From a phage: DNA of 42,716 bases. The notes beneath the pieces are model-generated. The model searched no databases. It had not been told where the DNA came from and was given only the letters and a program-made list of their open reading frames with translations. The stretch lies in the sequence record PZ386962.1; one strand, given 5' to 3'. Made by a program: the position numbers and the translations under genes. This document shows, piece after piece, positions 4,731 through 25,588 of the stretch; the first letter of the stretch is position 1, and every line of letters begins with the position of its first letter.

Positions 4731-4751
4731 CTAATGATTACAGTAACTTAT
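4731..4751. repeat. 21-bp direct repeat copy 2 (CTAATGATTACAGTAACTTAT)
   Basis: Exact copy of 4652-4672. Confidence 0.85.
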
Positions 4752-4772
4752 CACTTTTCTTGAAAATAATAC

Positions 4773-4801
4773 TTGCAAAGGTATTCGGTATTTGCTGTAA
4801 T
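4773..4801 (+). promoter_or_regulatory. sigma70-type early promoter candidate 1
   Basis: TTGCAA (-35) - 17 bp - TGcTGTAAT (extended -10). Confidence 0.5.
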
Positions 4802-4878
4802 TCATATCGCCGGACAACACAGCGTCAACGTGTTGGACGGTGTAGGACGGTAACACTGCTCTTTAACAATCTGGTGTG

Positions 4879-4907
4879 TTGACAAGGCAAGCTCACTATG
4901 CTGTAAT
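4879..4907 (+). promoter_or_regulatory. sigma70-type early promoter candidate 2
   Basis: TTGACA - 17 bp - TGcTGTAAT (extended -10 TGn). Confidence 0.6.
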
Positions 4908-5015
4908 GCTTCCACGTCAGCCAGCAAGCTAAACAGTCATTGATAAAGACGTTAAAACACACGTAGGCGAACTGGTACGGTTTAATTAACTCTGAAAGGG
5001 CGCTGATTAAAACGG

Positions 5016-5044
5016 TTGACAGGATGAAATGAGTATGCTGTAAT
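5016..5044 (+). promoter_or_regulatory. sigma70-type early promoter candidate 3
   Basis: TTGACA - 17 bp - TGcTGTAAT. Confidence 0.6.
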
Positions 5045-5095
5045 GCACACCAGATTGACAGGGCAGCAAGCCAGTCAGTCAGAAGTAAAAAGTAG

Positions 5096-5124
5096 TTGAC
5101 ACGCTGAATACGATGTGATGTAAT
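5096..5124 (+). promoter_or_regulatory. sigma70-type early promoter candidate 4
   Basis: TTGACA - 17 bp - TGaTGTAAT. Confidence 0.6.
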
Positions 5125-5556
5125 CAGCACCGAGTTGAAAGGTTGCAAAACAACCTGCTCTGAGTGAACGTAAACAGGCCACGTAGTGTCTCGGCCTCAT
5201 GGGTATCCGGCGCAGCTAGGAACTGGTGAGGGCACCGCCGAAAGGCAATAGGGGTAGCGCCCGGTGCGATGGGAACGGAGAAGCGCGATAGACGCAGCGC
5301 AGTATCAGCACAATCCCAAACGTCTTATAAGGCGCGGAGTGAAGCGGGTAGGTAGGCAAGCTGGTAACGGTGAGCCGGACTGCTGGAGGACTCCTGAGAG
5401 TGGATGCAGACAATATCCACGGCGCGAAATGGGCGGGGCGATTTTTCAGGGTAGTGAATCCGACAAGCCAATCAATGCCAACGAGTGCAGACTGTACGGC
5501 GCGTCACAATGGGTTCACTATCCACCTGAAAATAGCCAACAACTGGAGAAATTAAT

Positions 5557-5946
5557 ATGTACCGTATCTATGCAAGCGCATATCGTCAGGGCAACGCTGA
5601 GTCAGTCAATCTGGCGCTTCATTGCAAGGCACTGCGAACGGTGCAGGACATGTTCGGAGTGGTTCCGGTCACACTGACAGGCAAGTTCGACAATGCGTAT
5701 GAGTTAAGCATGGTCTTCCCTGTCGATGGAATCTACGAAATCCGACAGGCTGTTAAGCTGTTTTGTAAAGCCTTCGAACAGGACTGCATCATGGTAGTGA
5801 CCAAAGACGACGATGCAATCTTCATGGACTCACCGTATCCGGGTAAGCCTGCTGGCAAGCTGGTCAGCAAGACTAACGAGGAAATGGAAGCCGGGCAGCA
5901 TACCGCTTGGACTTACGATGGTGAGCAATTTTGGGTAGTGGAGTAA
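5557..5946 (+). CDS. hypothetical early protein
   Basis: 129-aa ORF, GGAGA RBS 6 nt upstream, first well-supported ORF downstream of the promoter cluster. Confidence 0.6.
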   Translation: MYRIYASAYRQGNAESVNLALHCKALRTVQDMFGVVPVTLTGKFDNAYELSMVFPVDGIYEIRQAVKLFCKAFEQDCIMVVTKDDDAIFMDSPYPGKPAGKLVSKTNEEMEAGQHTAWTYDGEQFWVVE

Positions 5947-6120
5947 GGAGCATGACTATGTTCACTGCACTGTGTGTTATTGCGGCGGCGTGTTGGGTTA
6001 TTGACCAGCGCCTGCCTAAGCGAGCCTGATATGTGGGACTTACTGGTAGCGTTATTCTGGTTCGTCTTTGCAGGCTTGTGGATTTACTGGCTGACTCGTC
6101 CCAAATTATGGTGACTGCCT

Positions 6121-6142
6121 AATGCGTCTTGCGAGGCGCATT
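6121..6142 (+). other. intergenic RNA stem-loop (8-bp stem, TTGCGA loop)
   Basis: AATGCGTC-TTGCGA-GGCGCATT; same loop sequence with different stems recurs at 7075 and 7484. Confidence 0.5.
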
Positions 6143-6178
6143 GTGAAGTAACCAACCAACAACCCGACGAGGTGTATC

Positions 6179-6706
6179 ATGACTACTGTTAAATATACTG
6201 CATTCAAAGACGCTGCCGCTCTGGACAAGGCCATTGAGTCTACCGTCAAGAAGGCGCACTCACTGCGTACCGACATCCAGAACGTTGCTGTCGGCATCAT
6301 CCTGCACGCTTACCATCACGGCGACTACACTCGTGCTGAATCCTTCGTGAATCAGCTCGGTCAGGGTGTCCGTGGCAAGGCGCTGGTAGACTGGTTCGTC
6401 AAGTTCGGCGGCCTGATTATCGGTGAGAACGGCGGGAAACAGGGTTTCATTGGCTGGCAGGGCGCTGAGTATATCAAGGCGAACATTGACACGGCCAAAG
6501 CCACTATGTGGTGGAGCCTGAAACCGGAGCAGACCTTCGAAGGCTTCGACCTGCAAGATGCGCTCGAAAAGCTGATTGCCAAAGCTGAGAAGGCGCTGAA
6601 CAAGGCCAATGAGCTGCGTCACGAAGGCAAGGACGAAGACGCGAACAAGGTAGTGGTGCCGCAGAACGTCCTCGACCTGCTGCGCAAGGCTAAACAGGCT
6701 GCCTAA
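6179..6706 (+). CDS. hypothetical early protein
   Basis: 175-aa ORF with GAGG RBS. Confidence 0.6.
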   Translation: MTTVKYTAFKDAAALDKAIESTVKKAHSLRTDIQNVAVGIILHAYHHGDYTRAESFVNQLGQGVRGKALVDWFVKFGGLIIGENGGKQGFIGWQGAEYIKANIDTAKATMWWSLKPEQTFEGFDLQDALEKLIAKAEKALNKANELRHEGKDEDANKVVVPQNVLDLLRKAKQAA

Positions 6707-6781
6707 GCGGGATTGACTCAAGCCAGTGTCAAGGCGCTGGCTTTATGGCAATTCTGCCCCAACCTATTCGGAGTATTACCC

Positions 6782-7063
6782 ATGACTATCAAAACTGTAA
6801 CTGCATTCGTGACCAAGAAAGCTGGCGAACTGTATGGCTTCGCTGTTTCCCTGAACGAAGGCCAGTACCTGCACCACGTCCGTGAAGAAGGCGAGCCGAC
6901 TGAGGCCGTAGCCATCCTCGAAACGTTGCAGGGTATCCCGCTGCCGCACGAGTTCATCATCATGCTCGCTGAGCAGGACGAAGACGACCTGCGACTGCGC
7001 CACGGTGACGACCTGACGATTGAAGAAATCGGCACGTTCGAAGCAGAAGTAGACGACGAGTAA
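6782..7063 (+). CDS. small acidic early protein
   Basis: 94 aa from internal ATG with GGAG RBS; Asp/Glu-rich acidic C-terminus; preceded by hairpin plus GGCAAT-N4-TGCC box. Confidence 0.55.
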   Translation: MTIKTVTAFVTKKAGELYGFAVSLNEGQYLHHVREEGEPTEAVAILETLQGIPLPHEFIIMLAEQDEDDLRLRHGDDLTIEEIGTFEAEVDDE

Positions 7064-12181: not shown

Positions 12182-12610
12182 GTGCTTGAGTGTATTGACC
12201 ACGGCCAGAAGGGTAATGCTAATGGCTACGGATATACCAGCCGCTATGTAGATGGCAAGCGGGTAGTGGTTGGGCTGCACCGCGCAGCTTACTGCGATGC
12301 GCATGGCCTGCCTTACTCTGCAATCAAGGGCAAGGTGGTCATGCACCGTTGTGATAACCCACGCTGTATCAACCCTGACCATCTGGTGTTGGGTACACAG
12401 GGAGACAACATGCAGGACATGATGGGCAAACGCCGACACCACAAGGGTGAGGCAACACCGCACGCCAAGCTGACGAGTGAGCAGGTCGTGCTTATCCGTA
12501 AGCTGTACGCTGAGGGCGGCGTAACCCAACGTGAACTTGCGTTGGAGTTCGGTGTATCCCAAACGAATATCAGTGCCATCGTAAGGGGAGAAACTTTCAG
12601 TGTTGGATAA
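12182..12610 (+). CDS. HNH homing endonuclease (HNH + C-terminal HTH)
   Basis: GTG start with AGGAG RBS; HRCDNPRCINPDHLVLGT HNH core; C-terminal helix-turn-helix-like tail; paralog of 18584-19009. Confidence 0.75.
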   Translation: MLECIDHGQKGNANGYGYTSRYVDGKRVVVGLHRAAYCDAHGLPYSAIKGKVVMHRCDNPRCINPDHLVLGTQGDNMQDMMGKRRHHKGEATPHAKLTSEQVVLIRKLYAEGGVTQRELALEFGVSQTNISAIVRGETFSVG

Positions 12611-13865
12611 ACTGTTGTTAACGGTGATGCGCGAGCGCGGGAAATACAACTCCCTGCGACACGCCATCCCGGAAGATACAATGAGCCAGACCACGGGCTA
12701 TATGCTGCGTGCTTACGGCTCATACTTTGACGCGTTCCCGGACAGTGACTTCATTGACATTGAGACACTGGGTACGCATGTTCGTTTGAAGACAGGCAGC
12801 ACGCCTGAACAGATGGCAGCCTTCGATTCGTTGTGCGCTCAGCTCAAAGAGTACAAGCCAACGAAGGAGCAGAAGGAGGGCATCCTTGACCAGCTCGTAG
12901 AGTTGGACACTGCTGGTCGTGCGAACCTGCTAATGCAACGGTACGATAATGGTGAAGAACTTGATATTATCTATGAGCTTGGCCGTCTGGCTGAGGGCGC
13001 ACGCCGCAGTCGGGGTCAATCATCCGTTACCGATTACGTCGATGACGATGTTGTTGACATTATTAATCGGACTGATGATGACCAAGGCTTTAAGTTCGGT
13101 CTCATGTGCCTGCAAGATAGCGTACGCGTACTGCTTCCCGGCGACTCCGTTGCAATCGCTGCCCGACCTGACAGTGGGAAGACCAGCTTCATCGCGTTTA
13201 ACCTTACGCGAATGGCGGCGACAGCAGCGAAGCTCTATCCGGGCAGACCAATCCTGTGGTTCAACAACGAAGGTCAGGGCATCAACATCATCCCGCGCAT
13301 CTATCAGGCGGCGCTCAACTGTACGCTCCCGGAACTGAAAGAGCTGGGTGAGGACAGAGGCAAGCTGCACGCTGCGTATGCCAAAGCACTGGGTGCGCCA
13401 GCCAATGTGATTCGTGTTAAGGATATGCACGGCGCGACGCTGGCGAAAGCTGAGCAGGTTATCGAAGCGATGAACCCGTGCATCGTGGTGTGGGATATGC
13501 TTGCCAACTTCAAGCTGTCTGTGTCTGACCCGTCAAGCAACAAGGCGAGTCAGGTCGAGCAGCTATGGCAGGAGGTACGTGAGCTGGCAGTGCGCCACAA
13601 CTTTGTGTCGCTGGCTACGGTTCAGGTATCTGCTGATGGTGCCGATGATATGTTCCCGGCACTGGATGCGCTCAAGGATTCCAAGACTGGTATCCAAGGG
13701 GCGACTGATGTTATCGTGATGCTCGGCAGTGTGGATGACCCATCACTGGCGGCGCGGCGCGGTGTCAGTACGCCGAAGAACAAACGCCAGATTGCTGGGC
13801 GTCCAAGCAACGTGCGGTCGCAGGTACACTTCTTTGCTGACCGCTGCCAATACGAGGATATGTAA
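12600..13865 (+). CDS. DNA helicase (DnaB-like / T7 gp4 helicase-domain-like)
   Basis: Walker A ARPDSGKTSF; size 421 aa; lies between primase and DNA polymerase; GTG start assumed. Confidence 0.7.
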   Translation: MLDKLLLTVMRERGKYNSLRHAIPEDTMSQTTGYMLRAYGSYFDAFPDSDFIDIETLGTHVRLKTGSTPEQMAAFDSLCAQLKEYKPTKEQKEGILDQLVELDTAGRANLLMQRYDNGEELDIIYELGRLAEGARRSRGQSSVTDYVDDDVVDIINRTDDDQGFKFGLMCLQDSVRVLLPGDSVAIAARPDSGKTSFIAFNLTRMAATAAKLYPGRPILWFNNEGQGINIIPRIYQAALNCTLPELKELGEDRGKLHAAYAKALGAPANVIRVKDMHGATLAKAEQVIEAMNPCIVVWDMLANFKLSVSDPSSNKASQVEQLWQEVRELAVRHNFVSLATVQVSADGADDMFPALDALKDSKTGIQGATDVIVMLGSVDDPSLAARRGVSTPKNKRQIAGRPSNVRSQVHFFADRCQYEDM

Positions 13866-14227
13866 TGAGCCATTTGAAGGTAGGTGACCGAGTAGTAAAC
13901 ATTGATGCACGCAGTGTGCATTACGGTGCGAAGGGTACTGTGGTTGACATCAACAACAAGTACGTGAGCATTGACCGCGACGATGGTGCGCGTGGTTCTG
14001 GTATCAGTGGCTCGTGGACTGCACGCCATGCGTCGTGGGCGCTGATTGGTGACGCTCCGCATGTGGCAGCCACGCCTGAACCGGAGGCGACTGCCGAGGA
14101 CTGGAGCTACGCTGAGGCTGAGCGTCTGTACCAAGCAGCGTGCGATGCCATGTCAGTGTACAACCAGTACGTTGAGCGTAAGCCGACGACCAGCTACCTG
14201 CCCGGCAGCGTGCCGAGTAAGTGGTGA
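13865..14227 (+). CDS. hypothetical protein (N-terminal KOW-like segment)
   Basis: 120-aa ORF, start overlaps helicase stop (TAATG). Confidence 0.5.
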   Translation: MSHLKVGDRVVNIDARSVHYGAKGTVVDINNKYVSIDRDDGARGSGISGSWTARHASWALIGDAPHVAATPEPEATAEDWSYAEAERLYQAACDAMSVYNQYVERKPTTSYLPGSVPSKW

Positions 14228-14347: not shown

Positions 14348-14539
14348 ATGGAAGAACGCACGTATCGAGCGGCACCCTTAAACCAACGTGAGCAAGCAAC
14401 CATCCGGGCGCAGTACCGGAAGGGTGATGCGTTCCGTGGTGCCGAGGCGCTGGCCGAACGTTTCAATGTGCCGCCTGCTGATGTGGTGGCAGTGGTGAAC
14501 TTCACTTATCGCAAGGGGAAACAGAAGCATGATAAGTAA
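14348..14539 (+). CDS. hypothetical small basic protein
   Basis: 63 aa, GGAGTA RBS 7 nt upstream. Confidence 0.5.
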   Translation: MEERTYRAAPLNQREQATIRAQYRKGDAFRGAEALAERFNVPPADVVAVVNFTYRKGKQKHDK

Positions 14540-15212
14540 TGCAGAAGTCAAGCGCGTATGGGCAGAGGACATCTGCCGTCTGCTGCAATCACATGAGCTG
14601 AACTTTGTGGTTGCCGGGGGAGGGGCAAGGGATACAGCGCTGGGTGTTGAGCCGAAGGACTATGACATCGTGGTCTTTGGTTGGGGTGGGGATGTAAGCC
14701 GCGTGGTCGGCAGACTCGAATGGTTAGACACCAACCTCGAAGCGTACGCCAAGCAGCACAACCTGCCGTATGAGTACATGCCAAGCTACCACGATGCAGC
14801 CGAGGGCGGCGACTTCGGTTCCCGTCTGTACGGTGTGTTCAAGCTCGGCCCGGTTGACATCATCATCAGTAAGTGTGGCTGCTGGTCACAGGTGCTGAGC
14901 GAGTTCGACTTCAACCTGAACCAGTTCTACTTCCCGTCCAGTATCCCGCGATACTCCGGGCAGTACAGCCGTGACCCCGGTGAGTTCATGGCGTACCCGT
15001 ACGAGCCGAAGCTGACAGCCGAGGACGTGCAGTGGTATCCGGCGCTGGCCAGTCTGGTTGAAAGCTACGACGACCTGCTGACTCTCCGCGTCTGCCGACC
15101 GGATGCCAGCCTGAGTCGTGTGGCCTACATGCTGGAGAAGCACGAGACACACCGCGAGCGCATCGAAGCATACGTCAATCGTATGCCAGACCATTTGGGT
15201 GGCACAGCATAG
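14529..15212 (+). CDS. Pol-beta-superfamily nucleotidyltransferase-like protein
   Basis: GG-x11-DYD signature (VVAGGGARDTALGVEPKDYDIVVF) matching the hG[GS]x9-13Dh[DE]h NTase motif, later VDIII acidic motif; AAGGGGA RBS. Confidence 0.55.
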   Translation: MISNAEVKRVWAEDICRLLQSHELNFVVAGGGARDTALGVEPKDYDIVVFGWGGDVSRVVGRLEWLDTNLEAYAKQHNLPYEYMPSYHDAAEGGDFGSRLYGVFKLGPVDIIISKCGCWSQVLSEFDFNLNQFYFPSSIPRYSGQYSRDPGEFMAYPYEPKLTAEDVQWYPALASLVESYDDLLTLRVCRPDASLSRVAYMLEKHETHRERIEAYVNRMPDHLGGTA

Positions 15213-15222: not shown

Positions 15223-17688
15223 ATGGCAATTAGAGCACAGGTAATCGACGTTGAGACTGAGAACCATGAGTGGTACGGGGAGCTGGCATCGCCGCGCTGC
15301 CCGGATAACTATGTGGTTATGCAGGGCCAGCGTGACTGTGTGCTGACCAAGGATGGCTGGGTATTCTACGAGCGCGAGGAGTATCGGTACAGTTCTCGTG
15401 AGGACTGGTTGCAGAACAAGAGTCTGCACCTGCATCCTGACACGAACATTCTGGTAGCTCACAACGCGCCGTATGAATTGAGCTGGTGGTTCGAGCATTA
15501 CGGTGACGAGTTCATTGCCTTCCTCAAACGAGGTGGCCGTGTATTCTGTACCGCGTATGCTGAGTACCTGCTGACGCATCAGCAATCCCAGTACCCATCC
15601 TTGAACGAGACAGCACCGAAGTATGGTGGTACTCACAAGGTGGATGCAGTCAAGGCAATGTGGGAGTCAGGCTATCTGACCAGCCAGATTGACCCTGAGC
15701 TGTTGAGCGAGTATCTGTCCGGGCCGTCCGGGGATATTGAGAACACGACCAAGCTGTTCGTTGGTCAGTGGGCTGAACTGACAAAGCAGGGCATGTTGCC
15801 GATGGCACTGACCCGCTTCGAAGGTATGCTCATGTGGGCGTACATGATGCACGCTGGTCTGCATGTTGACCGTGAGGTAGCCGAGCGCAACCGTCGCGAG
15901 TTACAGGATGCAATCAGTGGACTGACTGATACCCTACTGAGTTACCTGCCAGCCGACATGCCGAAGGAAGCGCGTGAGCAATTCAAGTTCACGTCAGCTT
16001 ATCACATGAGCGCCTTCGTGTTCGGTGGTGTGATGAAGTACAAGGCGCGAGTCGAGCGCCGGGATGCCGAGGGCAATCTCATTTACGTGAAGGTGGATGC
16101 ACCACTGTTCAAGCGAGGCAAGGACAAGTGGCTCAAGCATACCAGCGAGTGTGAGTGGGATGACGAGACTGGGTTGTGGTATGACCCGGTTGAGAAGGTA
16201 CACCAGACTATCTACACCAGCGGCAAGCACAAGGGCGAGCCGAAGTTTGAGAAGCTGGCTACCGACGAGGTGGATACCAAGTGGGGTGAGGTGCTGTTCC
16301 GTATGCCGGGGCTTCTGCGTGTGCAGGACAAACGAGCGAAGGAGATTGCAGACAACCTCGAATGGGAAGACCCGAAGAAGCCGGGCGAGTATCTCCGGCG
16401 CACAGGTGATTGGGTAGGTAAGCGTAGGCTGGCCGATGGTTCCCCGGTATTCAGTACGGCGGGTGAGGTGCTGGACATTCTGGCAGCTCGTAAGATTCCC
16501 GGCGTGGTGGAGATTGCTGACCGGGCCAAGGCACAGAAAGACCTCGGCACCTACTACCTCAGCGAGACGTTCGATGAAGAAGGTAACGTGACTGGCCAGT
16601 CGGGGATGATGCAGTTCATCCAGCCGGACAGTATCGTACACCACACCATCAACATGACCGCGACCGAGACGACGCGCTTATCTTCGGCGCGACCGAACAG
16701 CCAGAACTTGCCACGTAAAGGTACGAGTAAGGTTAAGCAGATGTTCACCTCCCGCTTTGGTGAAGGTGGCCGCATCGTTGAAGCTGACTACTCGGCACTG
16801 GAAGTGGTGGGGCTGGCCGGGTTCAGTAAGGATAAGAACCTGATTCGTGCATTGCTCGACGGTATCGACATGCACTGTATGCGTCTGTCAGCTCAGCTCA
16901 ACGAGCCATACGAGGACGTGCTTAAGAAGTGCAAGGATGAATCCCATCCCGACCATGCACGATACAGTCAGATGCGTACTGACATTAAGCCGAAGGCGTT
17001 CTCATATCAGTATGGTGCAACAGCGCGAGGTATTGCGTACTCGACTGGTTGCTCTGAGGAAGAAGCTCAAGCGTTCATCGACAACGAGAAGGGTCTGTTC
17101 CCGGAAGTTGAAGAATGGTTCGACTCGGTTATCTTCCCAGCCGTAGAGAAAAGTGGACAGAGCAATGTGTTCAAGGAGCAGGACGAGAACGGAAGATGGC
17201 AGGTGTATCGCCGTGGTCACTTCCGGTCGCCGGGTGGAACTTGTTATTCATTCCGTCAGTACGAGAAATGGAACAAGGCGGCGCGTGCTCACCTGATGGA
17301 ATACAAACCAACTCAGATGCGTAACTATCCCATTCAGGGTGAGACAGCATTTTGGGTACAGGGAATCGGTGGCTTGCTGTTCCGCTGGCTGCTATCGAAT
17401 GACTTCTTTGGTGGGCGTGTGGTTCCCATCAACCAAGTGCATGACGCATTCTATTTCGACATTGCACCTGACTGCCCTCACGAGTTCTTCGTTGGACTCA
17501 AGGCAATCATGGAGAGCATCCCGGAATACTATAACCACGTATGGCCAGAGTATAACCTGACAGTGCCGTTCCCGGCAGAGGTGGAAGCAGGGCCAAGCAT
17601 GTACGAGAAGCACCACGTAGAGACGACAGCCGATGAAGTGCTGGAGTTTAAGAGACAATTCCTGTTGAGTAAGGGTATCGCATTATGA
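15223..17688 (+). CDS. DNA polymerase, family A (T7 gp5-like) with 3'-5' exonuclease domain
   Basis: Exo I DxE (VIDVETE), motif A (EADYSALEV), motif B R-x3-K-x3-F-x2-YG (RTDIKPKAFSYQYG), motif C region (VHDAFYFD); 821 aa. Confidence 0.85.
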   Translation: MAIRAQVIDVETENHEWYGELASPRCPDNYVVMQGQRDCVLTKDGWVFYEREEYRYSSREDWLQNKSLHLHPDTNILVAHNAPYELSWWFEHYGDEFIAFLKRGGRVFCTAYAEYLLTHQQSQYPSLNETAPKYGGTHKVDAVKAMWESGYLTSQIDPELLSEYLSGPSGDIENTTKLFVGQWAELTKQGMLPMALTRFEGMLMWAYMMHAGLHVDREVAERNRRELQDAISGLTDTLLSYLPADMPKEAREQFKFTSAYHMSAFVFGGVMKYKARVERRDAEGNLIYVKVDAPLFKRGKDKWLKHTSECEWDDETGLWYDPVEKVHQTIYTSGKHKGEPKFEKLATDEVDTKWGEVLFRMPGLLRVQDKRAKEIADNLEWEDPKKPGEYLRRTGDWVGKRRLADGSPVFSTAGEVLDILAARKIPGVVEIADRAKAQKDLGTYYLSETFDEEGNVTGQSGMMQFIQPDSIVHHTINMTATETTRLSSARPNSQNLPRKGTSKVKQMFTSRFGEGGRIVEADYSALEVVGLAGFSKDKNLIRALLDGIDMHCMRLSAQLNEPYEDVLKKCKDESHPDHARYSQMRTDIKPKAFSYQYGATARGIAYSTGCSEEEAQAFIDNEKGLFPEVEEWFDSVIFPAVEKSGQSNVFKEQDENGRWQVYRRGHFRSPGGTCYSFRQYEKWNKAARAHLMEYKPTQMRNYPIQGETAFWVQGIGGLLFRWLLSNDFFGGRVVPINQVHDAFYFDIAPDCPHEFFVGLKAIMESIPEYYNHVWPEYNLTVPFPAEVEAGPSMYEKHHVETTADEVLEFKRQFLLSKGIAL

Positions 17689-18584
17689 CCGCATCTGTAT
17701 TGAACCGCATGAACTCCATCGTCGAACAGTATGTTGACGAGGAAGAACTTGACTTTAACGAAGCCACGTCTGGTGGTGGTAAGCTGCTGCCGGAAGGTAA
17801 GGCACTGGCACGTCTGGTTGGCTACATTGAAGTGGGGCCGAGCGTAACCAAGCAGGCACCGGACAAGCCGCCTGTCAATAAGTTCTTCCTCCAGTTCGCG
17901 CTGTGGGGCAAGGCCAAGAACGGCGAGACTTACCACGAAGTTGTCAATGGTAAGATGGTGCCGGGCAAGGTGCGCACGCAGTTCATCGCTGTGAAGAAAG
18001 ACCTCAACAGCAAGTCCGGCGCATACAAACTGTTTAAGCGTATGAACCCGGACAAGACTGCGAAGCACTTCGCGCAGCTTCTGAACCACACCTTCATCGT
18101 TCCGATTATCCACAACGAATCGGGCGAGGGCGAGAACAAGAAGGTGTACGCCAACATCGACCTTGAGAACATCATGCTCGCGGTTGACCCGGTGACTGAC
18201 CAGCCGTACCCGGTGCCGGAGGTTGAGGACGAGACGCTGTTCAAGCTGTTCCTGTGGAACCGTCCGACCAAGGAAGACTGGGAATCCCTGTACATCGAAG
18301 GTAAGAACGACGATGGCAAATCCAAGAACTGGATTCAGGATAAGCTGCTGGAATCTCCAGAGTTCCCCGGCTCTCCGCTTGACCTGCTGCTGAATGGTGC
18401 AGGTGCTGGCTCGGCAATCGCTGAGCTGCCGGAGCTGGGCGACGTAAGCCAGCCGGAGGAAGTGGCTGAGGTTAAGCAGGAAGTGCAGGAGCTGGCGACG
18501 GCTGGTGCGGCTGACAAGTCGGCAGCGTCTAAGCCTGAGCCGGACGTAACTGGTGACGCTGACTTCGGGCTGCCGAGTCTGTAA
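17685..18584 (+). CDS. hypothetical DNA-metabolism-associated protein with acidic C-terminus
   Basis: 299-aa ORF overlapping DNA polymerase stop; acidic C-terminal tail; function not assignable. Confidence 0.5.
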   Translation: MTASVLNRMNSIVEQYVDEEELDFNEATSGGGKLLPEGKALARLVGYIEVGPSVTKQAPDKPPVNKFFLQFALWGKAKNGETYHEVVNGKMVPGKVRTQFIAVKKDLNSKSGAYKLFKRMNPDKTAKHFAQLLNHTFIVPIIHNESGEGENKKVYANIDLENIMLAVDPVTDQPYPVPEVEDETLFKLFLWNRPTKEDWESLYIEGKNDDGKSKNWIQDKLLESPEFPGSPLDLLLNGAGAGSAIAELPELGDVSQPEEVAEVKQEVQELATAGAADKSAASKPEPDVTGDADFGLPSL

Positions 18585-19009
18585 TGGATTGCATAGACCA
18601 CGGTAAACGCGGCAACCACTTTGGCTACGCCACCACCACGAGGACGGTAGGTGGCAAGCGCCGGGCTGGTATCAAGCTGCATCGTCTGGTCTACTGTGAA
18701 GCGCATGGCCTGTCTCTCCTTGACATTGAGGGGCAGGTCGTGCGCCATACCTGCGACAACCCGCGCTGCATTAACCCCGACCACATGGTACTCGGTACTC
18801 ACCAAGACAATGTGGCCGACCGGGTAGCGCGTGGCCGTGGGGCAGTAGGCGTGAGGAATGGCAGAGCCGTACTGTGTCCCGCCGTAGTGGACGCAATCCG
18901 TAGCCGCTATGCGAATGGCGGCATCAAGCAATCTGAGCTGGCTGAGATTTATGGCGTGAGTCAAACGCAGGTCAGCCGCATAGTGAGGGGAGAGTCATGG
19001 GAAAGTTAG
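18584..19009 (+). CDS. HNH homing endonuclease (paralog of 12182-12610)
   Basis: HTCDNPRCINPDHMVLGT core; clearly co-linear with the other HNH protein over its full length. Confidence 0.75.
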   Translation: MDCIDHGKRGNHFGYATTTRTVGGKRRAGIKLHRLVYCEAHGLSLLDIEGQVVRHTCDNPRCINPDHMVLGTHQDNVADRVARGRGAVGVRNGRAVLCPAVVDAIRSRYANGGIKQSELAEIYGVSQTQVSRIVRGESWES

Positions 19010-19971
19010 ACAGGCTACTCGCCAGAGCGGAGGTGGAACCTGACCAGTTTGATGGTTACGTGTCTGGTCGTATTCTGCTGTGTGATGCTGACTCGACAGT
19101 CTACGTTGCGGCAGCAACCACGAAGAACATCGAGACAGCGAAGACGCGGTTCTGTTCCGGGGTGCTGACTGCTAAGTTCCTCGCCAATGCTCAGTCAGTC
19201 CGTATCGAGTTGACCGCTGCGGAGTGTACGAAAGCTGGACGGTACAAGCTGCGTGGGGCCAAGCTGTATCAGGGCAACCGAGACAAAGACCGCAAGCCCG
19301 GTCTGGTCGAGCCGTTGCGTAAGGCGATTGGCCGGAATATGTTCAACGTTCCTGATGGCGAGGATTGGTACGTCCACCTGAACTTCGAGTTCGAGGCAGA
19401 CGACACCTTAATCATGGATGCGTGGACGATTGGCATTAACGATGCAGTAATCTACAGCGCGGATAAAGACCTGCGCTGCTGGCCGGGCAGGTTCCTTGAC
19501 CCGTACGACAACAAGGTACTGGAGCCATGCAAAGGTGTGGGCCGTCTGTGGTGGCATGAGACCAAGAGTGACAAGTCACTGATTGGTCATGGGCCTATCT
19601 TCTTTTGGGCACAGATGCTGATGGGCGACAGCGCCGACAACATCGCAGGTGTCAAGAAGATTGGTAAACAGACAGCTTACGATATGCTGGTCGATTATCA
19701 GGAGACTGATGACGAGTCGGCTGTGGCTGAGTTCGTGCTCCGTGAGTACATGGTGCGCGACCAGAACCCATGGCCAGAAGCAGTGGCGTTGTGGCTGTAC
19801 CGCACGCCGACCTACTCATTCGCAGCCCACCTCAATACGCTGACCTTGAGCAAGGAGCTGCGTGTCTGGCTGCATAAGAAACTGAATGAGGAATGGTATG
19901 CGGAAAGTGACTGGCGCGACCTTGTTGCAGATGCGGAAGAATGCGATGGGCTGTCCTTGCCCACTCTGTAA
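18997..19971 (+). CDS. 5'-3' exonuclease (T7 gp6-like, FEN-type)
   Basis: Acidic motifs in the order expected for T7 gp6-like exonucleases (LLCDADSTVYVAA, ADDTLIMDAW, YSADKDLRCWPG); GAGGGGAGAG RBS. Confidence 0.65.
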   Translation: MGKLDRLLARAEVEPDQFDGYVSGRILLCDADSTVYVAAATTKNIETAKTRFCSGVLTAKFLANAQSVRIELTAAECTKAGRYKLRGAKLYQGNRDKDRKPGLVEPLRKAIGRNMFNVPDGEDWYVHLNFEFEADDTLIMDAWTIGINDAVIYSADKDLRCWPGRFLDPYDNKVLEPCKGVGRLWWHETKSDKSLIGHGPIFFWAQMLMGDSADNIAGVKKIGKQTAYDMLVDYQETDDESAVAEFVLREYMVRDQNPWPEAVALWLYRTPTYSFAAHLNTLTLSKELRVWLHKKLNEEWYAESDWRDLVADAEECDGLSLPTL

Positions 19972-20278
19972 CGAGCCGATGGTAGACCTCAAGCTCATGG
20001 TGGTTGACCATGACCATGTGAGCGGGGAGATTCGCGGTGTCATCTGTCGCTGGTGTAATGCTCAGCTCGGTAAGGTAGAGAACTCTGCGAACCGGGCGAA
20101 GCGCCAGCGTACAGTTGACGACTGGTTGGACAGTGCCATTGAGTGGCGACGTAAGCAACACACTGGTCTGATGTACCCAACGCACAAGACCGAGGCAGAG
20201 AAGAAAGCGGCGATGGCCGACAGACGTAAGAAGGCGGCAGCCGCGAAAGCGCGAGCCTTAATCACTAAGGGGAAATGA
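19946..20278 (+). CDS. endonuclease VII-like Holliday junction resolvase
   Basis: Zinc-binding HNH-like core CPCPLCNEPMVDLKLMVVDHDHVSGEIRGVICRWCN typical of endonuclease VII family; start uncertain (19886, 19931 or 19946). Confidence 0.6.
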   Translation: MGCPCPLCNEPMVDLKLMVVDHDHVSGEIRGVICRWCNAQLGKVENSANRAKRQRTVDDWLDSAIEWRRKQHTGLMYPTHKTEAEKKAAMADRRKKAAAAKARALITKGK

Positions 20279-21402
20279 TGACCAAGTTAACTAATCACCA
20301 ACTCAAAGAAGACATTGCCGAAGGGCTTGGCACCAAGGCCATTGCTGAAAAGCACGACATGACCGAGAGCGCCATTCGATACCGGAAGCGCCAGCTTGCC
20401 AAGAGCGGCTGGAGTCCTGAGCACGACATGACGAAGGAGGTGCCGGAGCCGTACGCGGTGAAGGGTACGTCCACGCTGTACGATAAGGACGGCAACGTTG
20501 TCATGCAGTGGGTGAAGACAGCACTCGACCGTGAGCAGGAGCTGGCGCTGCTGCAAGAAGCTGTCGATGCGATTAGCGAGAGCATCACCCCGGAAGCTGC
20601 CCGACCGTACGCCGGGGGCGCGGCACCTGCCGAGCTGCTGAACCTGTTCGTGCTGACTGACTACCACCTCGGTATGCTGGCATGGGCAGAGGAAACTGGT
20701 GACGACTGGGATATGAAGATTGCGGAAGACCTGCTGGTCAAGTGGTTCTCGGCAGCGATTGCCAGTGCGCCGCCAGCACAGGTTGCCATCTTCGGCCAGC
20801 TCGGTGACTTCCTACACTGGGATGGGCTGGATGCAGTGACACCTTCGAGTGGGCATGTGCTGGATGCAGACACGCGATTCCAGAAGCTGGTGCGTGTGGC
20901 TATCCGGGCGCAGCGCCGCATCATTGGTATGCTGCTGGAGAAGTTCCCGCAGGTTCACGTAGTGTGTGCCGAGGGCAACCACGACATGGCCAGCTCCATC
21001 TGGATGCGTGAGCTGCTGCATGTCCTGTACGCTGACGAGCCGCGTGTCACCGTTGACCGCAGCCCCGACCCGTACTACTGCTATGAGCATGGCGAGACGG
21101 CACTGTTCTTCCACCATGGTCACAAGCGTAAGGCAGAACAACTGGAGACTATACTGGTCGCCAAGTTCCGCGAAGTGTATGGCCGAACCAAACATGCGTA
21201 TGCGCACGTTGGCCACCTGCATCACAAGAAGGTACTGGAGTCTGGTGTCATGGTCGTTGAGCAGCACCGTACGCTGGCAGCGAAGGATGCCTATGCCTCT
21301 CGTGGTGGTTGGCTGAGTGAGCGCAGCGCGAGCGTGATTACTTATCATGCCCGGTACGGTGAGGTCGCACGATTCACGATTAGCCCGGAGATGTTAGAGT
21401 GA
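20275..21402 (+). CDS. calcineurin-like metallophosphoesterase with N-terminal HTH
   Basis: Phosphoesterase motifs GDFLHWDG, EGNHDM, HHGH, GHLHH; N-terminal helix-turn-helix-like segment; AAGGGGA RBS. Confidence 0.6.
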   Translation: MMTKLTNHQLKEDIAEGLGTKAIAEKHDMTESAIRYRKRQLAKSGWSPEHDMTKEVPEPYAVKGTSTLYDKDGNVVMQWVKTALDREQELALLQEAVDAISESITPEAARPYAGGAAPAELLNLFVLTDYHLGMLAWAEETGDDWDMKIAEDLLVKWFSAAIASAPPAQVAIFGQLGDFLHWDGLDAVTPSSGHVLDADTRFQKLVRVAIRAQRRIIGMLLEKFPQVHVVCAEGNHDMASSIWMRELLHVLYADEPRVTVDRSPDPYYCYEHGETALFFHHGHKRKAEQLETILVAKFREVYGRTKHAYAHVGHLHHKKVLESGVMVVEQHRTLAAKDAYASRGGWLSERSASVITYHARYGEVARFTISPEMLE

Positions 21403-21617
21403 CGAGAACACTGTACCAAGAAGATGTGGTGCAGCTCAAAGAGGATGGCCTTTCCATTGAGTGGGAGGCCAACACTCAGGTCGAGCTGTATAAGGATGGC
21501 ACCGTCTGCATATCGCAGGATGGTGAGGAAGTCTGGTTGCCTTGGGCATATGTCCGGGATATTATTTTCGCTCTTGAGGAAGCACACGATGCACATGAAA
21601 GATACCGTAGTCGTTGA
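21399..21617 (+). CDS. hypothetical small acidic protein
   Basis: 72 aa, GTG start with GGAGA RBS. Confidence 0.45.
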   Translation: MTRTLYQEDVVQLKEDGLSIEWEANTQVELYKDGTVCISQDGEEVWLPWAYVRDIIFALEEAHDAHERYRSR

Positions 21618-22092
21618 TTTGGACGGCACGCTGGCTGATGGCCGCTGGCGTTTGCACCTGCTGCCTCCACCGGAGCGTCGGCACCTTGACGAAGCGTGGG
21701 CCGAGTTCAACTTGGCTGGCGCTGACGACCCTGCGTTTCAGGATACGATTGACATTGTGAACGCTCTGGCCCTCACGTATCGCATTGTCATCCTGACTGG
21801 ACGCGGGGCCGTGGCCCGTGAAGTAACAGAGCAGTGGCTCGACGAAGCTGGCGTTGTTTACGACAAGCTAATCATGAGAGAGATTGGTGACTGCCGTAAG
21901 GACACAGAGATGAAGCTATCCGCTCTGGAGGATATTGGTATCGAGAACATCGTGTGTGCTTTCGATGACCTGCCGCACATCGTGGACTTCATGCGAAGCC
22001 TCGGCATCACAGTGTATGAAGTGACCCGGTACGAGGACAACCATGAATACGTCCACGCCAATGCCAAATATGATGGAGACAAAGATGAGTAA
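21589..22092 (+). CDS. HAD-superfamily phosphatase (polynucleotide 3'-phosphatase-like)
   Basis: DxDGT motif right after start (MHMKDTVVVDLDGTLADGRW), later ILTGR and CAFDD motifs; GAGGA RBS 8 nt upstream of ATG at 21589. Confidence 0.6.
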   Translation: MHMKDTVVVDLDGTLADGRWRLHLLPPPERRHLDEAWAEFNLAGADDPAFQDTIDIVNALALTYRIVILTGRGAVAREVTEQWLDEAGVVYDKLIMREIGDCRKDTEMKLSALEDIGIENIVCAFDDLPHIVDFMRSLGITVYEVTRYEDNHEYVHANAKYDGDKDE

Positions 22093-22663
22093 GAAGGGTA
22101 AGCAGTTTATCTTAGACCCGTCCCGTAACTGGGGTACTGGTACGCTACTGAGTGACATCGCAGAGCAGGGTATCATCCTGACGTACGACGAGCCGTACGA
22201 TGTACCGAACGACAGCCGTGACTACTACTCCTGCGTAAAGGACGGCAAGACTCACCTGCTTGTGCTGGAGCCGTACGAGGTGCTGGAGGTGGAGAAGTCG
22301 TTCATCCCGATTGACCCGTATGACCCGGCCAGTGATGTTGAGGTCGCAGTGGTTAAGGCTGCTGGGCCGGGCGGTATGAAGTTCGACGGTGACAAGCCTC
22401 GCATGGCTCTGCTGTTTGACGGCTGCCCGAATGCGCTGGAGGCTGTGGCCAGTGTGCTAACCTTCGGTGCTCAGAAGTACGCAGCTCACTCGTGGCAGAC
22501 TGTGCCGGAAGGTGAGGAACGTTACAAGTCAGCACTGCTTCGGCACCTGACCGCAGTGGGTAAGGGTGAGGAGACTGACCCGGAATCCAATCTGCACCAT
22601 CTGGCGCACGCTGCTTGCAATGCGCTGTTCATTCTGGAACTTGCTTTAAGGAAAACGAAATGA
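22085..22663 (+). CDS. conserved hypothetical protein (KFDGDKPR motif)
   Basis: 193 aa from ATG with GGAGA RBS; function not assignable from sequence. Confidence 0.5.
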   Translation: MSKKGKQFILDPSRNWGTGTLLSDIAEQGIILTYDEPYDVPNDSRDYYSCVKDGKTHLLVLEPYEVLEVEKSFIPIDPYDPASDVEVAVVKAAGPGGMKFDGDKPRMALLFDGCPNALEAVASVLTFGAQKYAAHSWQTVPEGEERYKSALLRHLTAVGKGEETDPESNLHHLAHAACNALFILELALRKTK

Positions 22664-22839
22664 GTGCTTTACTTTATGTGATTGCTTTGTTCTGGTTCGT
22701 GTACTTTACACTGGCCACCCTCAGCGCGTGCAAGTCTTATAACTTGACGCACTACCCGACACGGGCTGGCTCTGCTGGTTTCGTTGTGTGGGTACTGTTG
22801 GCTGTACTGCCAACTTGGTTCATCTGCTATCTGGCGTAG
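22660..22839 (+). CDS. small membrane protein (2 predicted TMDs)
   Basis: 59 aa, hydrophobic segments LLYVIALFWFVYFTLATL and FVVWVLLAVLPTWFICYLA; AAGGA RBS. Confidence 0.5.
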   Translation: MSALLYVIALFWFVYFTLATLSACKSYNLTHYPTRAGSAGFVVWVLLAVLPTWFICYLA

Positions 22840-22847
22840 GGGATTGT

Positions 22848-23153
22848 ATGAGTCGTTATCAGAGAGCTGTCGATGACACAGCGGTAGACAAGAATGTGTG
22901 CGGTGCGTGCCATGGGAGTGGCACCTACCGGGGCATGTTGATTGGTGGGCAGGTAGTCCTGATGGATTGCGAAGCCTGCGGCGGTACGGGTACGAATAAC
23001 AGCACGCTTCAACACGAGGTGCTGGCAGACTTAGGGCAGCGCAACCAAGCGCAGCCCGGTTATGATAAGCCTACCTATGGCGTTGGTATTGTCGAAGAAT
23101 TTCAAGACGATGCGGCTGAGGTTGAGCGGTTAGCTGGACAAATTAAGGAGTAG
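22848..23153 (+). CDS. small zinc-finger protein (CxxCxGxG x2, DnaJ-type-like)
   Basis: CGACHGSGT and CEACGGTGT motifs; GGGG RBS. Confidence 0.5.
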   Translation: MSRYQRAVDDTAVDKNVCGACHGSGTYRGMLIGGQVVLMDCEACGGTGTNNSTLQHEVLADLGQRNQAQPGYDKPTYGVGIVEEFQDDAAEVERLAGQIKE

Positions 23154-23155: not shown

Positions 23156-25588
23156 GTGGACTTACTTGCTGAGCAGATTCGACTTGAAGAAGAAGCACGA
23201 GCCAGACACCGCGAGGGCTGGCTGGACAATATCAAAGAAGCCATGGCTAGTGGCCGGGCCGGGTCGGTGCCGTTGCTCCAGCGTATGATGGTAGAGGCGT
23301 ATCCTCTTGTCGAAGCTGCGATGCAAGAAACCCTGAACGAAACGACCCGTGGGTACGGTGCGCAGTACCGGACGTACATGCGTGAGATTGGCACCAAGGC
23401 GTGTGCCTCTCTTGCACTGAGCATGGCGGTGTCCGGTGCTGCGTCGGAGCAGGCGGTGCTGAGTCTGCTTAAGAGTATGGGTAAAGCGCTGATGGCTGAG
23501 GTGGTGTATCTCCGGGCGAAGCAGACCGGGCCACAGCAGGCAGCGTACATGGAGCGCGTGAAGCAGGACGTTAAGAAGTCCCGGTCGAAGTCAGCCAACC
23601 ACGTCTACAACAAAGCGCGTGCGTCGGCGGCGAACGTTGGGGTCGAGATTGATGTGCTGCCGCAGCGTGCTCTGATTACCATTGGCAAGCTGATGATGAA
23701 ATGCGTGGAGCCAACTGGGTTGGTGGCTACGATTCGCGTCGGCGGCAACCAACGTCAGCGCGGTACGGCACACTTCGCACTGCATGAGGATGTGCTGGCT
23801 ACGATGAACGACTGGCTGGACATGCCGCGTGCTGATGGCATGTGCTGCCCACCGTTGATTATCCCACCGAAGCAGATTGCACCGAACGGTCGCAGCGGTA
23901 TGTGGCACTCGGATGGGCAGGCGGCGATGTACCGGGTAATGAGTCGCATGAACCACAAAGGGTATCGTGCATTGAACGTTGACCCGACCCCTGTTATAGA
24001 GCCGTGTATGATGCTCAGCAGCGTTCCGTACCGAATTAACCCAATGGTACTGGAGTTCCTGAGAACGAACCGTACAGGCGTTATGGGGCTGCCTGTGCCG
24101 CCTCGTGAGCCTAAGCTCCCATTCACCATCCCGGCTGGTGTCAGCTTCGCGCAGTACATCAGCAAGTTCCCACCAGAGATGCAGCAGCAGATGGATGCCG
24201 AGGCTCATGAGTACAAGGTTAAGACTCGCTTGTATTACAATGAGTTGCGTAAGTTCACGTCGCAGATGCTGGCGCTGAATGGTGCAGTCAAAGAGGCAGA
24301 GCGCTATGCGCATTATGACCGGGTATACCTCCCGACCTACGCTGATACACGGGGCCGAATTTATTATTCTTCGACCCTTAACCCTCAGTCCATCGACGCA
24401 GTGCGAGCGCTGCTCGAACTTGCTGAACCAGTGGCTCTCGGAAGTGAGGGGTTATTCTGGCTCAAGGTACATGTTGCGAATTGCTTCGGCTACGACGCGA
24501 CAGACTTCGAAGACCGGGCGGCGTGGACGGACAAGACACTCCCCCGACTACGTGAGGCGTGCCGTCTTCCAGAGGCATTTGATTCGTTCTGGTCAGAGGC
24601 CGATAGCCCTATCAGCGCGTGGGCTGCATCTGTTGAACTCATTCGCGCTATCGACTCAGGAAATCCTGCGGCTTATCCCTGCCGAGTGGTTACACAATGG
24701 GACGCTACCTGTTCAGGATTACAGCACCTCAGTGCGATGTTACGAGATGAGGTTGGAGGTGCTGCTGTCAATCTTATCGACAGCGTGGGAAGAAAAGCAG
24801 ACATATATCTCAAGACGGCAGCAGCGGCGATGCAGGCTCTTGAAGAAAGTGAGGCAGCAGCGCCGACGCAAATGGGTACGTGGCTTGTTAGCATCGGCAT
24901 CGTTCGGGCTATGGCCAAGAAGCCAGTGATGACCTACGTGTACGGGGCAACCCGGCATGGTATGGTTGATTACTACTGCCTGTATCTGCGTGAGAACCGG
25001 GTCAAGCTGCCGGACGGCAAGAGCCTGCTGGAGTGTGCGCAGTTCATCGCAGAGTTCATGTGGAACGCTATCCCTCGCGTTGTGCCGAAGGCGGCTGAGC
25101 TGATGGCATGGTTGCAGGCTATCGCAGTTGAGGCGGCAGCCAACGGCGAGTACGTGGAAATCATCGCACCGTCAGGGTTGCGGGTGGTTAACCTGTACCA
25201 AGCCAGTAAGGAGACGATGCTCAACAACATCAACCTCATGGGTATCCACAGCATTAAGCTGCGTGAGTATCTGGACAAGCCGGACAGCCGGAAGTGTGCT
25301 GCTGCGATTGCTCCGAATTTCGTACACGCTATGGATGCCAGCCACATGATGAAGGTGCTGTGGGAGATGTGGAACAACGGGGTGTACATGGTATCCATCC
25401 ATGACTCGTTCGGTGTTGCGGCGGCACATGCTGGTCTGCTGCATAAGGTCATTCGTGAAAAGTTCGTACAGATGTATGAGCAACATGACCCAATTCAACA
25501 GCTTGCGGTAAGATACAATGCTGTTCCACCTGAGCGGGGCAATCTGGACATCCAGCTTGTGAAACAATCAAGCAAGTTTTTCTGCTGA
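23156..25588 (+). CDS. single-subunit DNA-dependent RNA polymerase (T7 RNAP family)
   Basis: Motif A-like DATCSGLQHLSAML, motif B-like KKPVMTYVYGAT, motif C HDSFG; 810 aa; GTG start with AAGGAG RBS; sits directly upstream of the structural genes as in phiKMV-like phages. Confidence 0.9.
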   Translation: MDLLAEQIRLEEEARARHREGWLDNIKEAMASGRAGSVPLLQRMMVEAYPLVEAAMQETLNETTRGYGAQYRTYMREIGTKACASLALSMAVSGAASEQAVLSLLKSMGKALMAEVVYLRAKQTGPQQAAYMERVKQDVKKSRSKSANHVYNKARASAANVGVEIDVLPQRALITIGKLMMKCVEPTGLVATIRVGGNQRQRGTAHFALHEDVLATMNDWLDMPRADGMCCPPLIIPPKQIAPNGRSGMWHSDGQAAMYRVMSRMNHKGYRALNVDPTPVIEPCMMLSSVPYRINPMVLEFLRTNRTGVMGLPVPPREPKLPFTIPAGVSFAQYISKFPPEMQQQMDAEAHEYKVKTRLYYNELRKFTSQMLALNGAVKEAERYAHYDRVYLPTYADTRGRIYYSSTLNPQSIDAVRALLELAEPVALGSEGLFWLKVHVANCFGYDATDFEDRAAWTDKTLPRLREACRLPEAFDSFWSEADSPISAWAASVELIRAIDSGNPAAYPCRVVTQWDATCSGLQHLSAMLRDEVGGAAVNLIDSVGRKADIYLKTAAAAMQALEESEAAAPTQMGTWLVSIGIVRAMAKKPVMTYVYGATRHGMVDYYCLYLRENRVKLPDGKSLLECAQFIAEFMWNAIPRVVPKAAELMAWLQAIAVEAAANGEYVEIIAPSGLRVVNLYQASKETMLNNINLMGIHSIKLREYLDKPDSRKCAAAIAPNFVHAMDASHMMKVLWEMWNNGVYMVSIHDSFGVAAAHAGLLHKVIREKFVQMYEQHDPIQQLAVRYNAVPPERGNLDIQLVKQSSKFFC

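Follow-up and report, generated by a model that had tools for sequence, protein, structure and literature searches.

The window analysed here is the whole of sequence record PZ386962.1, a 42.7-kb stretch of 42,716 nucleotides that forms the complete genome of a T7-like coliphage of Bonnellvirus (Autographivirales; Autoscriptoviridae; Stentvirinae), with every gene on the + strand. Within its DNA-metabolism block lie two genes that are the subject of this report, one for a 375-residue metallophosphoesterase (MPE) with a putative N-terminal helix-turn-helix (HTH), the other for a 167-residue phosphatase of the HAD superfamily. The assignment of the two proteins to their families is, in our judgement, close to certain. 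The DNA of the MPE-HAD stretch is 96% identical to that of Escherichia phage LF82-23 and 93-96% identical to that of several Danish wastewater coliphages (megetsur, mellemsur, aldrigsur and others). The features of both proteins and the genes around them are collected in Table 1.

Two adjacent ATG codons could start the MPE, at 20275 (375 residues) or at 20278 (374 residues). Relatives are annotated from the second, which is also the better fit given the spacing from the Shine-Dalgarno sequence AAGGGG (20267-20272). The full set of MPE motifs (TD129xH131, GD178xxH181xDG, GN235H236D237, HH281GH283 and GH314xH316) is invariant among 34 homologues of at least 57% identity, and D129, H131, D178, N235, H236, H281 and H316 are invariant too among 34 homologues at 35-59% identity. 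The seven metal ligands D129, H131, D178, N235, H281 (or H283), H314 and H316 are invariant or nearly so in the two alignments, down to 35% identity, and the protein has the five motifs and seven ligands (D, H, D, N, H, H, H) by which the binuclear calcineurin-like MPE superfamily is recognised. Two histidines that are not ligands, H181 (three residues after D178 in motif II) and H236 (directly after N235 in motif III), are likewise conserved in the family of the window MPE. An earlier reading of the locus, made from the letters alone and referred to below as the sequence-only reading, had described a complete calcineurin-type motif set in this open reading frame (ORF), and all of the motifs were found. 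It had also stated that a lack of conservation of the motif residues across homologues would speak against it; the whole set is kept in the closer alignment and the core set in the more distant one. At the nucleotide level, 77-92 nucleotides around motif I (20654-20748) are 83-87% identical to MPE genes of Kagunavirus and other siphoviruses, the proteins being ~54% identical overall.

The window MPE matches PHROG 704 over its full length (E 2.1e-146, residues 3-374 on profile positions 2-389 of 390). This family is named 'DNA repair exonuclease', an annotation that goes back to fold similarity alone. Proteins of this type give more than 4900 matches at 90% clustering and 4901 cluster representatives at 50% identity, and PHROG 704 is carried by 1997 of 50,697 phage genome records (~4%). 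The carriers include T1 (gp16), Rtp, T1-like Klebsiella phages, Jersey-like and Kagunavirus siphoviruses, and Vibrio and Campylobacter phages; J8-65 gp23, LIMEzero gp27 and Kagunavirus L_8 are other members. A length of 370-390 residues is the norm for the family, so the protein, which the sequence-only reading called large for a T7-like phage nuclease, is not unusual in size. NCBIfam and PADLOC held no match for the window MPE, and a fold search of BFVD gave no hits beyond uncharacterised family members and automatic labels.

The structure of the MPE was modelled with AlphaFold2 (AF2; pLDDT 79.6, pTM 0.71). The model contains three N-terminal helices, a beta-hairpin at residues 61-83, a linker helix and an MPE sandwich that runs from residue 121 to the C-terminus, and the modelled sandwich has the beta-sandwich MPE fold. 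The fold similarity is that of a generic MPE, with Mre11/SbcD marginally nearest; class III cyclic-nucleotide phosphodiesterases such as Rv0805 are also among the best matches. The HTH proposed in the sequence-only reading was borne out at the level of the family. The three N-terminal helices of the model agree with it, as do Pfam HTH matches in family members, among them Sigma70_r4_2 (1.5e-9), GerE (2.4e-8), HTH_1, HTH_8 and HTH_23, but the window sequence itself falls under the threshold for every Pfam HTH. GerE is also the best PDB sequence match of the family profile, at a marginal E of 0.07. The fused HTH is thus a feature of the family. An HTH-less homologue from a Campylobacter phage keeps part of the hairpin and linker segment.

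The 167-residue protein matches HAD_PNKP (PF25109, E 4.2e-15) and PHROG 415 (E 2.1e-54). Motifs I-IV of the HAD superfamily (DxDxT; S/T; K/R; DD) are present as D10, D12, T14, T70, R72, K109 and D126-D127, and the DxDGT nucleophile noted in the sequence-only reading is confirmed as the first of them. Among 12 orthologues from three phage lineages, D10, D12, T14, R72, D105, K109, D126 and D127 are invariant, and the position of T70 is occupied by Thr or Ser. Among solved structures, significant matches were confined to the phosphatase domains of Capnocytophaga Pnkp1 (4xrp) and T4 Pnkp (1ltq/5uj0), to which the protein aligns over residues 197-307 and 161-297, respectively. In the latter alignment, D10/D12/T14/R72/D105/K109/D126/D127 correspond to T4 D165/D167/T169/R213/D254/K258/D277/D278, which we take to be the residues found essential for 3'-phosphatase activity in the mutagenesis of the Shuman laboratory.

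The kinase half of Pnkp has no counterpart at this locus. The HAD protein covers only positions 161-291 of the 295-position full-length family phrog_505; there is no P-loop in its sequence and no adjacent ORF of the Pnk kinase type. A bifunctional Pnkp of the T4 type was rejected because the N-terminal P-loop 5'-kinase domain is missing. The PHROG 415 profile (218 positions) is itself phosphatase-only though named 'polynucleotide kinase', and as the 167-residue protein comprises only the phosphatase half, that label is a misnomer. On these alignments the protein is a kinase-less phosphatase half of T4 Pnkp and a predicted 3'-phosphatase. Its homologues occur in 1066 phage records and include Pap of phage P1.

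Table 1. Features of the MPE and HAD proteins and genes of the surrounding block
Feature	Position	Strand	Detail
HTH-MPE gene, 375 aa	20275-21402	+	PHROG 704 full-length member
N-terminal three-helix HTH, residues 7-43	20293-20403	+	AF2 helices 7-15, 20-26, 31-43, pLDDT ~90
Conserved beta-hairpin and linker helix, residues 46-101	20410-20577	+	'SPEHDMT...VKGTSTLYD.DG...QWVK'
MPE catalytic domain, residues 121-375	20635-21399	+	
MPE motif I	20656-20673	+	D129-x-H131
MPE motif II	20803-20826	+	G177-D178-x-x-H181
MPE motif III	20974-20985	+	G234-N235-H236-D237
MPE motif IV	21112-21123	+	H280-H281-G282-H283
MPE motif V	21211-21222	+	G313-H314-x-H316
Predicted kinase-less Pnkp-type HAD 3'-phosphatase gene, 167 aa	21589-22092	+	PF25109, phrog_415
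HAD motif I	21616-21630	+	D10-L-D12-G-T14
HAD R72	21802-21804	+	
HAD D105	21901-21903	+	
HAD K109	21913-21915	+	
HAD D126-D127	21964-21969	+	
72-aa ORF	21399-21617	+	Between the MPE and HAD genes
DNA polymerase	15223-17688	+	Upstream context
phrog_862 protein, HNH homing endonuclease, then 5'-3' exonuclease		+	Order after DNA polymerase
5'-3' exonuclease	18997-19971	+	Context
Endonuclease VII	19886-20278	+	PF02945 E 4.4e-13; phrog_423 E 8e-31
dGTP_diPhyd_N-domain protein (NTP-pyrophosphohydrolase-like)	22085-22663	+	PF18909 E 9.5e-33; phrog_801/19680
Small zinc-finger 'Q-like' protein	22788-23153	+	Just before RNA polymerase
RNA polymerase	23156-25588	+	End of block

The MPE gene directly follows that for endonuclease VII, as the sequence-only reading had it, and the endonuclease VII stop overlaps the MPE start (ATGA). 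That reading also placed the MPE and HAD frames correctly but overlooked the conserved 72-residue ORF between them. The MPE stop and the start of this ORF overlap as GTGA, the ORF and the HAD start overlap by 29 nucleotides, and the HAD stop overlaps the start of the next gene, that for the nucleoside triphosphate (NTP)-pyrophosphohydrolase-like protein, as ATGAGTAA. A scan for promoters and terminators found no signal exceeding shuffled controls, and together with the overlapping stop and start codons this makes the block look like a single translationally coupled operon. In comparisons with related phages for which dS could be estimated, the ratio of nonsynonymous to synonymous substitution rates (dN/dS) was 0.04-0.22 for all five block genes; the one outlier, 1.67, came from the poorly aligned comparison of the dGTP_diPhyd_N gene with that of L009. 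These ratios indicate that the five genes are under purifying selection. Taken with the PHROG 704 and PHROG 415 matches, the same ratios argue that the MPE and HAD assignments are not due to chance.

The 72-residue ORF is lineage-restricted, with only 7 close homologues among 5.8 billion proteins, and has a dN/dS of ~0.2. Its AF2 model (pLDDT 60) contains six short strands and a C-terminal helix, and its sequence gives a weak SH3-like Pfam match (IN_DBD_C, 9e-5). In T1-like phages an SH3 gene (DUF7244) that has been ascribed to lysis lies directly after the MPE orthologue. No sequence similarity was detected between the 72-residue protein and this T1-like protein, nor a match of the former to the DUF7244 Pfam family. 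The parallel position of the ORF, far from any lysis gene, is a hint that small proteins of this kind belong with the MPE and not with lysis.

Several other genes of the window deserve comment. The protein encoded directly after the HAD gene carries its dGTP_diPhyd_N domain (PF18909) at the C-terminal end, the N-terminal half being uncharacterised, and its public labels conflict: 'putative phosphodiesterase', 'hypothetical', and PHROG names that include 'endolysin; inhibits RNA polymerase'. The 'anti-termination Q-like' gene before RNA polymerase encodes DnaJ-type CxxCxGxG zinc-finger repeats (weak Pfam match, 7.7e-4), and its Q-like label derives from a PHROG match of 60 residues. Two paralogous homing endonucleases of HNH-plus-HTH type, at 18584-19009 (+) and 12182-12610 (+), are 53% identical to one another. 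The first lies between the phrog_862 and 5'-3' exonuclease genes at a site that is empty in LF82-23, aldrigsur and J8-65, which points to a recent insertion. Directly 5' of DNA polymerase, 14529-15212 (+) encodes a 227-residue 'nucleotidyltransferase' (phrog_1614, E 2e-42) that has no Pfam match, and after the helicase gene 13865-14227 (+) encodes a 120-residue protein with a weak match to an Xrn1 SH3-like domain (E 5.6e-5, under the gathering score).

The surroundings of MPE homologues were compared across 81 viral loci. The HAD gene is present in ten of these, in every case directly downstream of the MPE. An adjacent MPE-HAD-deoxynucleoside monophosphate (dNMP) kinase (phrog_139) order occurs in Kagunavirus, a T1-like Klebsiella phage and other Autographivirales-like contigs. 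In the unrelated Kagunavirus siphoviruses the orthologues are 54% and 48% identical to the window proteins, and the cassette (hypothetical-MPE-HAD-dNMP kinase) is on the opposite strand within the tail-gene cluster. In Escherichia phage L AB-2017 (L005, Kagunavirus) this four-gene cassette, with a 108-residue hypothetical protein first, occupies 4224-6785 and resembles an inserted moron. In the T1-like Klebsiella phage vB_Kpn_F13 the three genes stand in the same order and are followed by lysis genes. An independent study of Drexlerviridae from 2026 describes a 'DNA repair exonuclease' as persistent, with 508 of 522 genomes having it; what comes next is a stand-alone SH3 gene (DUF7244) in some cases and 'polynucleotide kinase' with dNMP kinase in the others (PMC13164509).

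A different MPE was found in the same slot in the Klebsiella podophage vB_Kpn1-P3 (L089, PP848845.1), in which 2527-4578 holds the syntenic block of exonuclease, endonuclease VII, MPE, HAD, dNMP kinase and RNA polymerase. This MPE belongs to an unrelated family, phrog_221, known from KP34-like Klebsiella podophages, and shows no pairwise similarity to the window MPE (BLASTP E 2.4); the HAD (phrog_415) and dNMP kinase are orthologous. The phrog_221 protein is an apparent non-orthologous replacement, and this is the best evidence that MPE and phosphatase form a selected functional unit. The pairwise identities of the MPE and HAD proteins also correlate (r = 0.82), but this is uninformative as it is explained by shared genome ancestry.

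The wider neighbourhoods of the MPE homologues are of two kinds. Of the 81 loci, 26 have a junction-type endonuclease (endonuclease VII, NinG/Rap or an HNH protein resembling endonuclease VII) no more than 2.5 kb away, 18 have NinB, and in 14 the gene directly downstream is that for a Q-like antiterminator. Campylobacter phage F356 has an HTH-less PHROG 704 member right after a DNA ligase and near a Holliday-junction resolvase. Neighbours of nucleotide type (dNMP kinase, dGTP_diPhyd_N or DUF6378 proteins) are present in 55 loci; DUF6378 proteins were seen near the homologue in 29. The sequence-only reading had offered two roles for the pair, as nuclease and phosphatase for DNA ends or as enzymes of the nucleotide pool, and genomic context lends support to both: the former through the junction endonucleases, NinB and ligase near MPE homologues, the latter through the dNMP kinase or NTP-pyrophosphohydrolase-like gene beside the MPE-HAD pair.

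The reading we prefer, with confidence that is evenly balanced, is that the pair comprises an HTH-MPE DNA nuclease and an end-healing 3'-phosphatase that act within a DNA-processing and nucleotide-salvage block. It starts from the fold, the family membership, the conserved catalytic residues and a gene order conserved across unrelated phages, all of which are observed. From these we infer that the substrates are DNA and 3'-phosphate ends, that the two activities are coupled, and what biological purpose they serve. The HTH-MPE would be a Mn2+/dimetal-dependent DNA phosphodiesterase, anchored to DNA through its HTH and beta-hairpin. Its targets would be single-stranded, branched or end structures, cut as host DNA is broken down and as recombination and replication intermediates are processed. 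It would work with the 5'-3' exonuclease and endonuclease VII in a manner resembling T7 gp6 and gp3, which serve both in the breakdown of host DNA and in the processing of recombination and replication intermediates. Cleavage by the MPE in either orientation would yield a mix of 3'-OH and 3'-PO4 ends. The HAD protein would strip 3'-phosphates from DNA ends, oligonucleotides or nucleotides and so restore 3'-OH, and the healed products could then be extended, ligated, further degraded or passed to the nucleotide-pool enzymes encoded alongside. The next gene is of this last type, a dNMP kinase in other phages and the NTP-pyrophosphohydrolase-like protein in the window.

Two aspects of this proposal draw on the MPE of Pseudomonas putida. 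In that enzyme DNA cleavage requires His81 (D78+3) and His113 (N112+1), whereas hydrolysis of a generic diester does not (PMC7826289). The window MPE has the conserved H181 and H236 at the corresponding motif positions, which favours a nuclease, the role of the two residues being taken from the P. putida mutagenesis. The P. putida enzyme also leaves 3'-PO4 as well as 3'-OH ends (PMC7826289), and a paper on 'two chemically distinct nuclease reactions' of SbcCD, as it appears in the reference list of PMC7826289, is a precedent for 3'-PO4 ends. Stand-alone MPE nucleases and SbcCD are able to cut in either orientation, with 3'-PO4 ends as a result (PMC7826289), and MPE nucleases that leave such ends would explain the presence of a 3'-phosphatase partner.

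A number of observations weigh against a nuclease coupled to a phosphatase. The two conserved histidines are present in non-nuclease diesterases as well, and the HTH could serve regulation and not substrate binding. The window MPE scores 15.9 bits against PF00149 (Metallophos), under the gathering score of 21.5, and only 6 of 34 family members reach that Pfam family at an E of 0.01 or better; the family is a divergent clade that escapes Pfam. No significant match to a solved MPE was found among PDB chains with either the single sequence or the family profile, and the searchable literature, including a paper on ApeA and a preprint on transposon mutagenesis of phages, yielded no biochemical or genetic experiment on any PHROG 704 member. 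In some 70 of the 81 loci the MPE homologue has no HAD gene beside it, and in T1 and Rtp the MPE and HAD genes are far apart, so the pairing is facultative. In the window itself, no dNMP kinase gene is found next to the pair.

Other explanations of the pair were considered. Both proteins might be enzymes of the mononucleotide pool, with the MPE as a nucleotidase or dinucleotide (Ap4A-like) hydrolase, the HAD protein as a nucleotide 3'- or 5'-phosphatase, and polymeric DNA as no substrate of either. The fused HTH would then be hard to account for, the histidines of nuclease type are conserved, the gene recurrently adjoins junction endonucleases, NinB or ligase, and the HAD subfamily PF25109 is of the polynucleotide-end type; we consider this explanation unlikely. 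A similarly low probability is given to counter-defence by host takeover, in which the MPE would be either a toxic nuclease that silences defence genes by breaking up the DNA of the host or a phosphodiesterase that destroys cyclic-nucleotide immune signals, with the HAD protein only a helper. Such a role is documented for the MPE gp48 of mycobacteriophage A10ZJ24 (PMC12287305), PHROG 704 is widespread and mobile across unrelated phages, and the class III cyclic-nucleotide phosphodiesterases are among the best fold matches. However, gp48 belongs to a different, short, HTH-less family, PHROG 704 is a persistent core gene of Drexlerviridae (508/522; PMC13164509) and not a variable accessory, the gene sits in middle or DNA-metabolism regions and not in early anti-defence regions, and PADLOC gave no match.

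Healing of RNA ends as a counter-defence is, in our estimate, less probable again. The MPE would have 2',3'-cyclic phosphodiesterase activity, as do lambda phosphatase and the MPE domain of Clostridium thermocellum Pnkp, and the HAD protein would serve as the 3'-phosphatase, so that tRNAs cut by anticodon nucleases or HEPN RNases are repaired as by T4 Pnkp with Rnl1. Among solved structures the HAD protein is closest to phosphatase domains from RNA-repair enzymes (Pnkp1 and T4 Pnkp), and the Kagunavirus cassette is moron-like, on the opposite strand inside tail genes. MPE-type domains are documented as 2',3'-cyclic phosphodiesterases in RNA repair (PMC2190708). On the other side, the polynucleotide 5'-kinase domain is missing, the P-loop protein that other phages encode beside the pair is of the dNMP kinase family (phrog_139) and not Pnk, the annotation of the window and of its near-identical relative includes neither an RNA ligase nor a DNA ligase, and the MPE has a DNA-type HTH and lies among DNA recombination genes. 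Removal of 3'-phosphates would, in addition, block host ligation of the RtcB type. The least probable explanation, to which we give very little weight, is a protein phosphatase like lambda NinI (PP-lambda) or an HTH transcription factor that times late expression. In its favour, lambdoid-type relatives carry the gene in a nin-like region directly 5' of a Q-like antiterminator and lysis genes, and some records label it 'sigma-70 region 4 domain-containing protein'. Membership of the PPP protein phosphatases, the family type of lambda NinI, was rejected since the motifs differ from the GDxHG, GDxVDRG and GNHE signatures and the fold scores are low.

An extension of the DNA nuclease and 3'-phosphatase reading is a portable 'DNA-to-nucleotide' cassette that would combine an MPE nuclease with a Pnkp-type 3'-phosphatase and, as third enzyme, either a dNMP kinase or an NTP-pyrophosphohydrolase-like protein, and would be exchanged among unrelated phages (Autographivirales, Guernseyvirinae and Drexlerviridae). 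The phosphatase would be a dedicated healer of the 3'-phosphate ends made by 'ambidextrous' MPE nucleases, and the function under selection would be robust enough for PHROG 704 and PHROG 221 to be interchangeable in the slot. The small beta-rich proteins encoded after the MPE (the 72-residue ORF and the DUF7244 SH3 protein) would then be MPE cofactors and not lysis proteins. This is a tentative proposal that we think improbable as a whole.

By the identities found, the gene content of the window contains nothing new. Annotated genes already on deposit match those for the MPE and the HAD protein at 95-100% identity, the protein identities reaching 99.5% (MPE, Escherichia phage mellemsur) and 100% (altidsur), and near-identical genes are deposited as 'phosphoesterase/DNA repair exonuclease' and 'polynucleotide kinase'. 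Both families already hold PHROG entries and the gene order has already been noted in Drexlerviridae; the MPE-HAD finding is genuine, correctly read and ordinary. The interest lies in function. Were the substrate of the HTH-MPE established, and with it whether the resulting ends are healed by the phosphatase, thousands of phage genes would gain a real function, and it would become clear how small lytic phages turn host DNA into precursors or process replication intermediates. The gene of the HAD partner, moreover, is widely mislabelled 'polynucleotide kinase'.

Among known systems, T4 Pnkp (PseT) and Capnocytophaga Pnkp1 share with the phosphatase its HAD_PNKP domain with the DxDxT, R, D, K and DD residues. 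For the MPE, the sequence-only reading had suggested comparison with SbcD/Mre11-like phage proteins, and here the likeness proved to be one of generic fold and not of orthology. The window MPE shares with Mre11 and SbcD the histidines of nuclease type (motif II D+3 and motif III GNH), and ~190 residues align with Mre11/SbcD/T4 gp47 at 15-17% identity with no sequence-level match. In place of their C-terminal capping domain it has an N-terminal HTH, and no gene for a Rad50/SbcC/gp46 SMC-like ATPase was found in the whole window or in the annotated near-identical genome. An Mre11/SbcD orthologue was rejected because both the capping domain and the Rad50-like partner are missing.

The P. putida MPE (PDB 6NVO), a Mn2+-dependent endonuclease for single-stranded DNA, resembles the window MPE in standing alone with neither capping domain nor Rad50-like partner, and the two proteins have in common the seven metal ligands and the histidines at D+3 and N+1. 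Their sequence match is insignificant (E 1.4 over 20 residues), and the P. putida enzyme has no HTH and is encoded in a repair operon with the Lhr helicase, whereas the window MPE belongs to a phage without Lhr helicase. Membership of the P. putida MPE clade was rejected for want of both sequence relatedness and the Lhr-operon context. A single characterised phage MPE came up in the searchable literature, the Bxb1-type gp48 of mycobacteriophage A10ZJ24, which has the five motifs and phosphodiesterase activity and causes host DNA damage (PMC12287305). In contrast to the window MPE, gp48 is short, with motif I at residue 10, has no HTH or hairpin and occupies another genomic setting; its shortness, the position of motif I and the lack of an HTH place it in a different family from PHROG 704. 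With the members of PHROG 704 itself, the window MPE shares the architecture of HTH, hairpin and MPE and a length of ~375 residues, and nothing substantive sets it apart from them.

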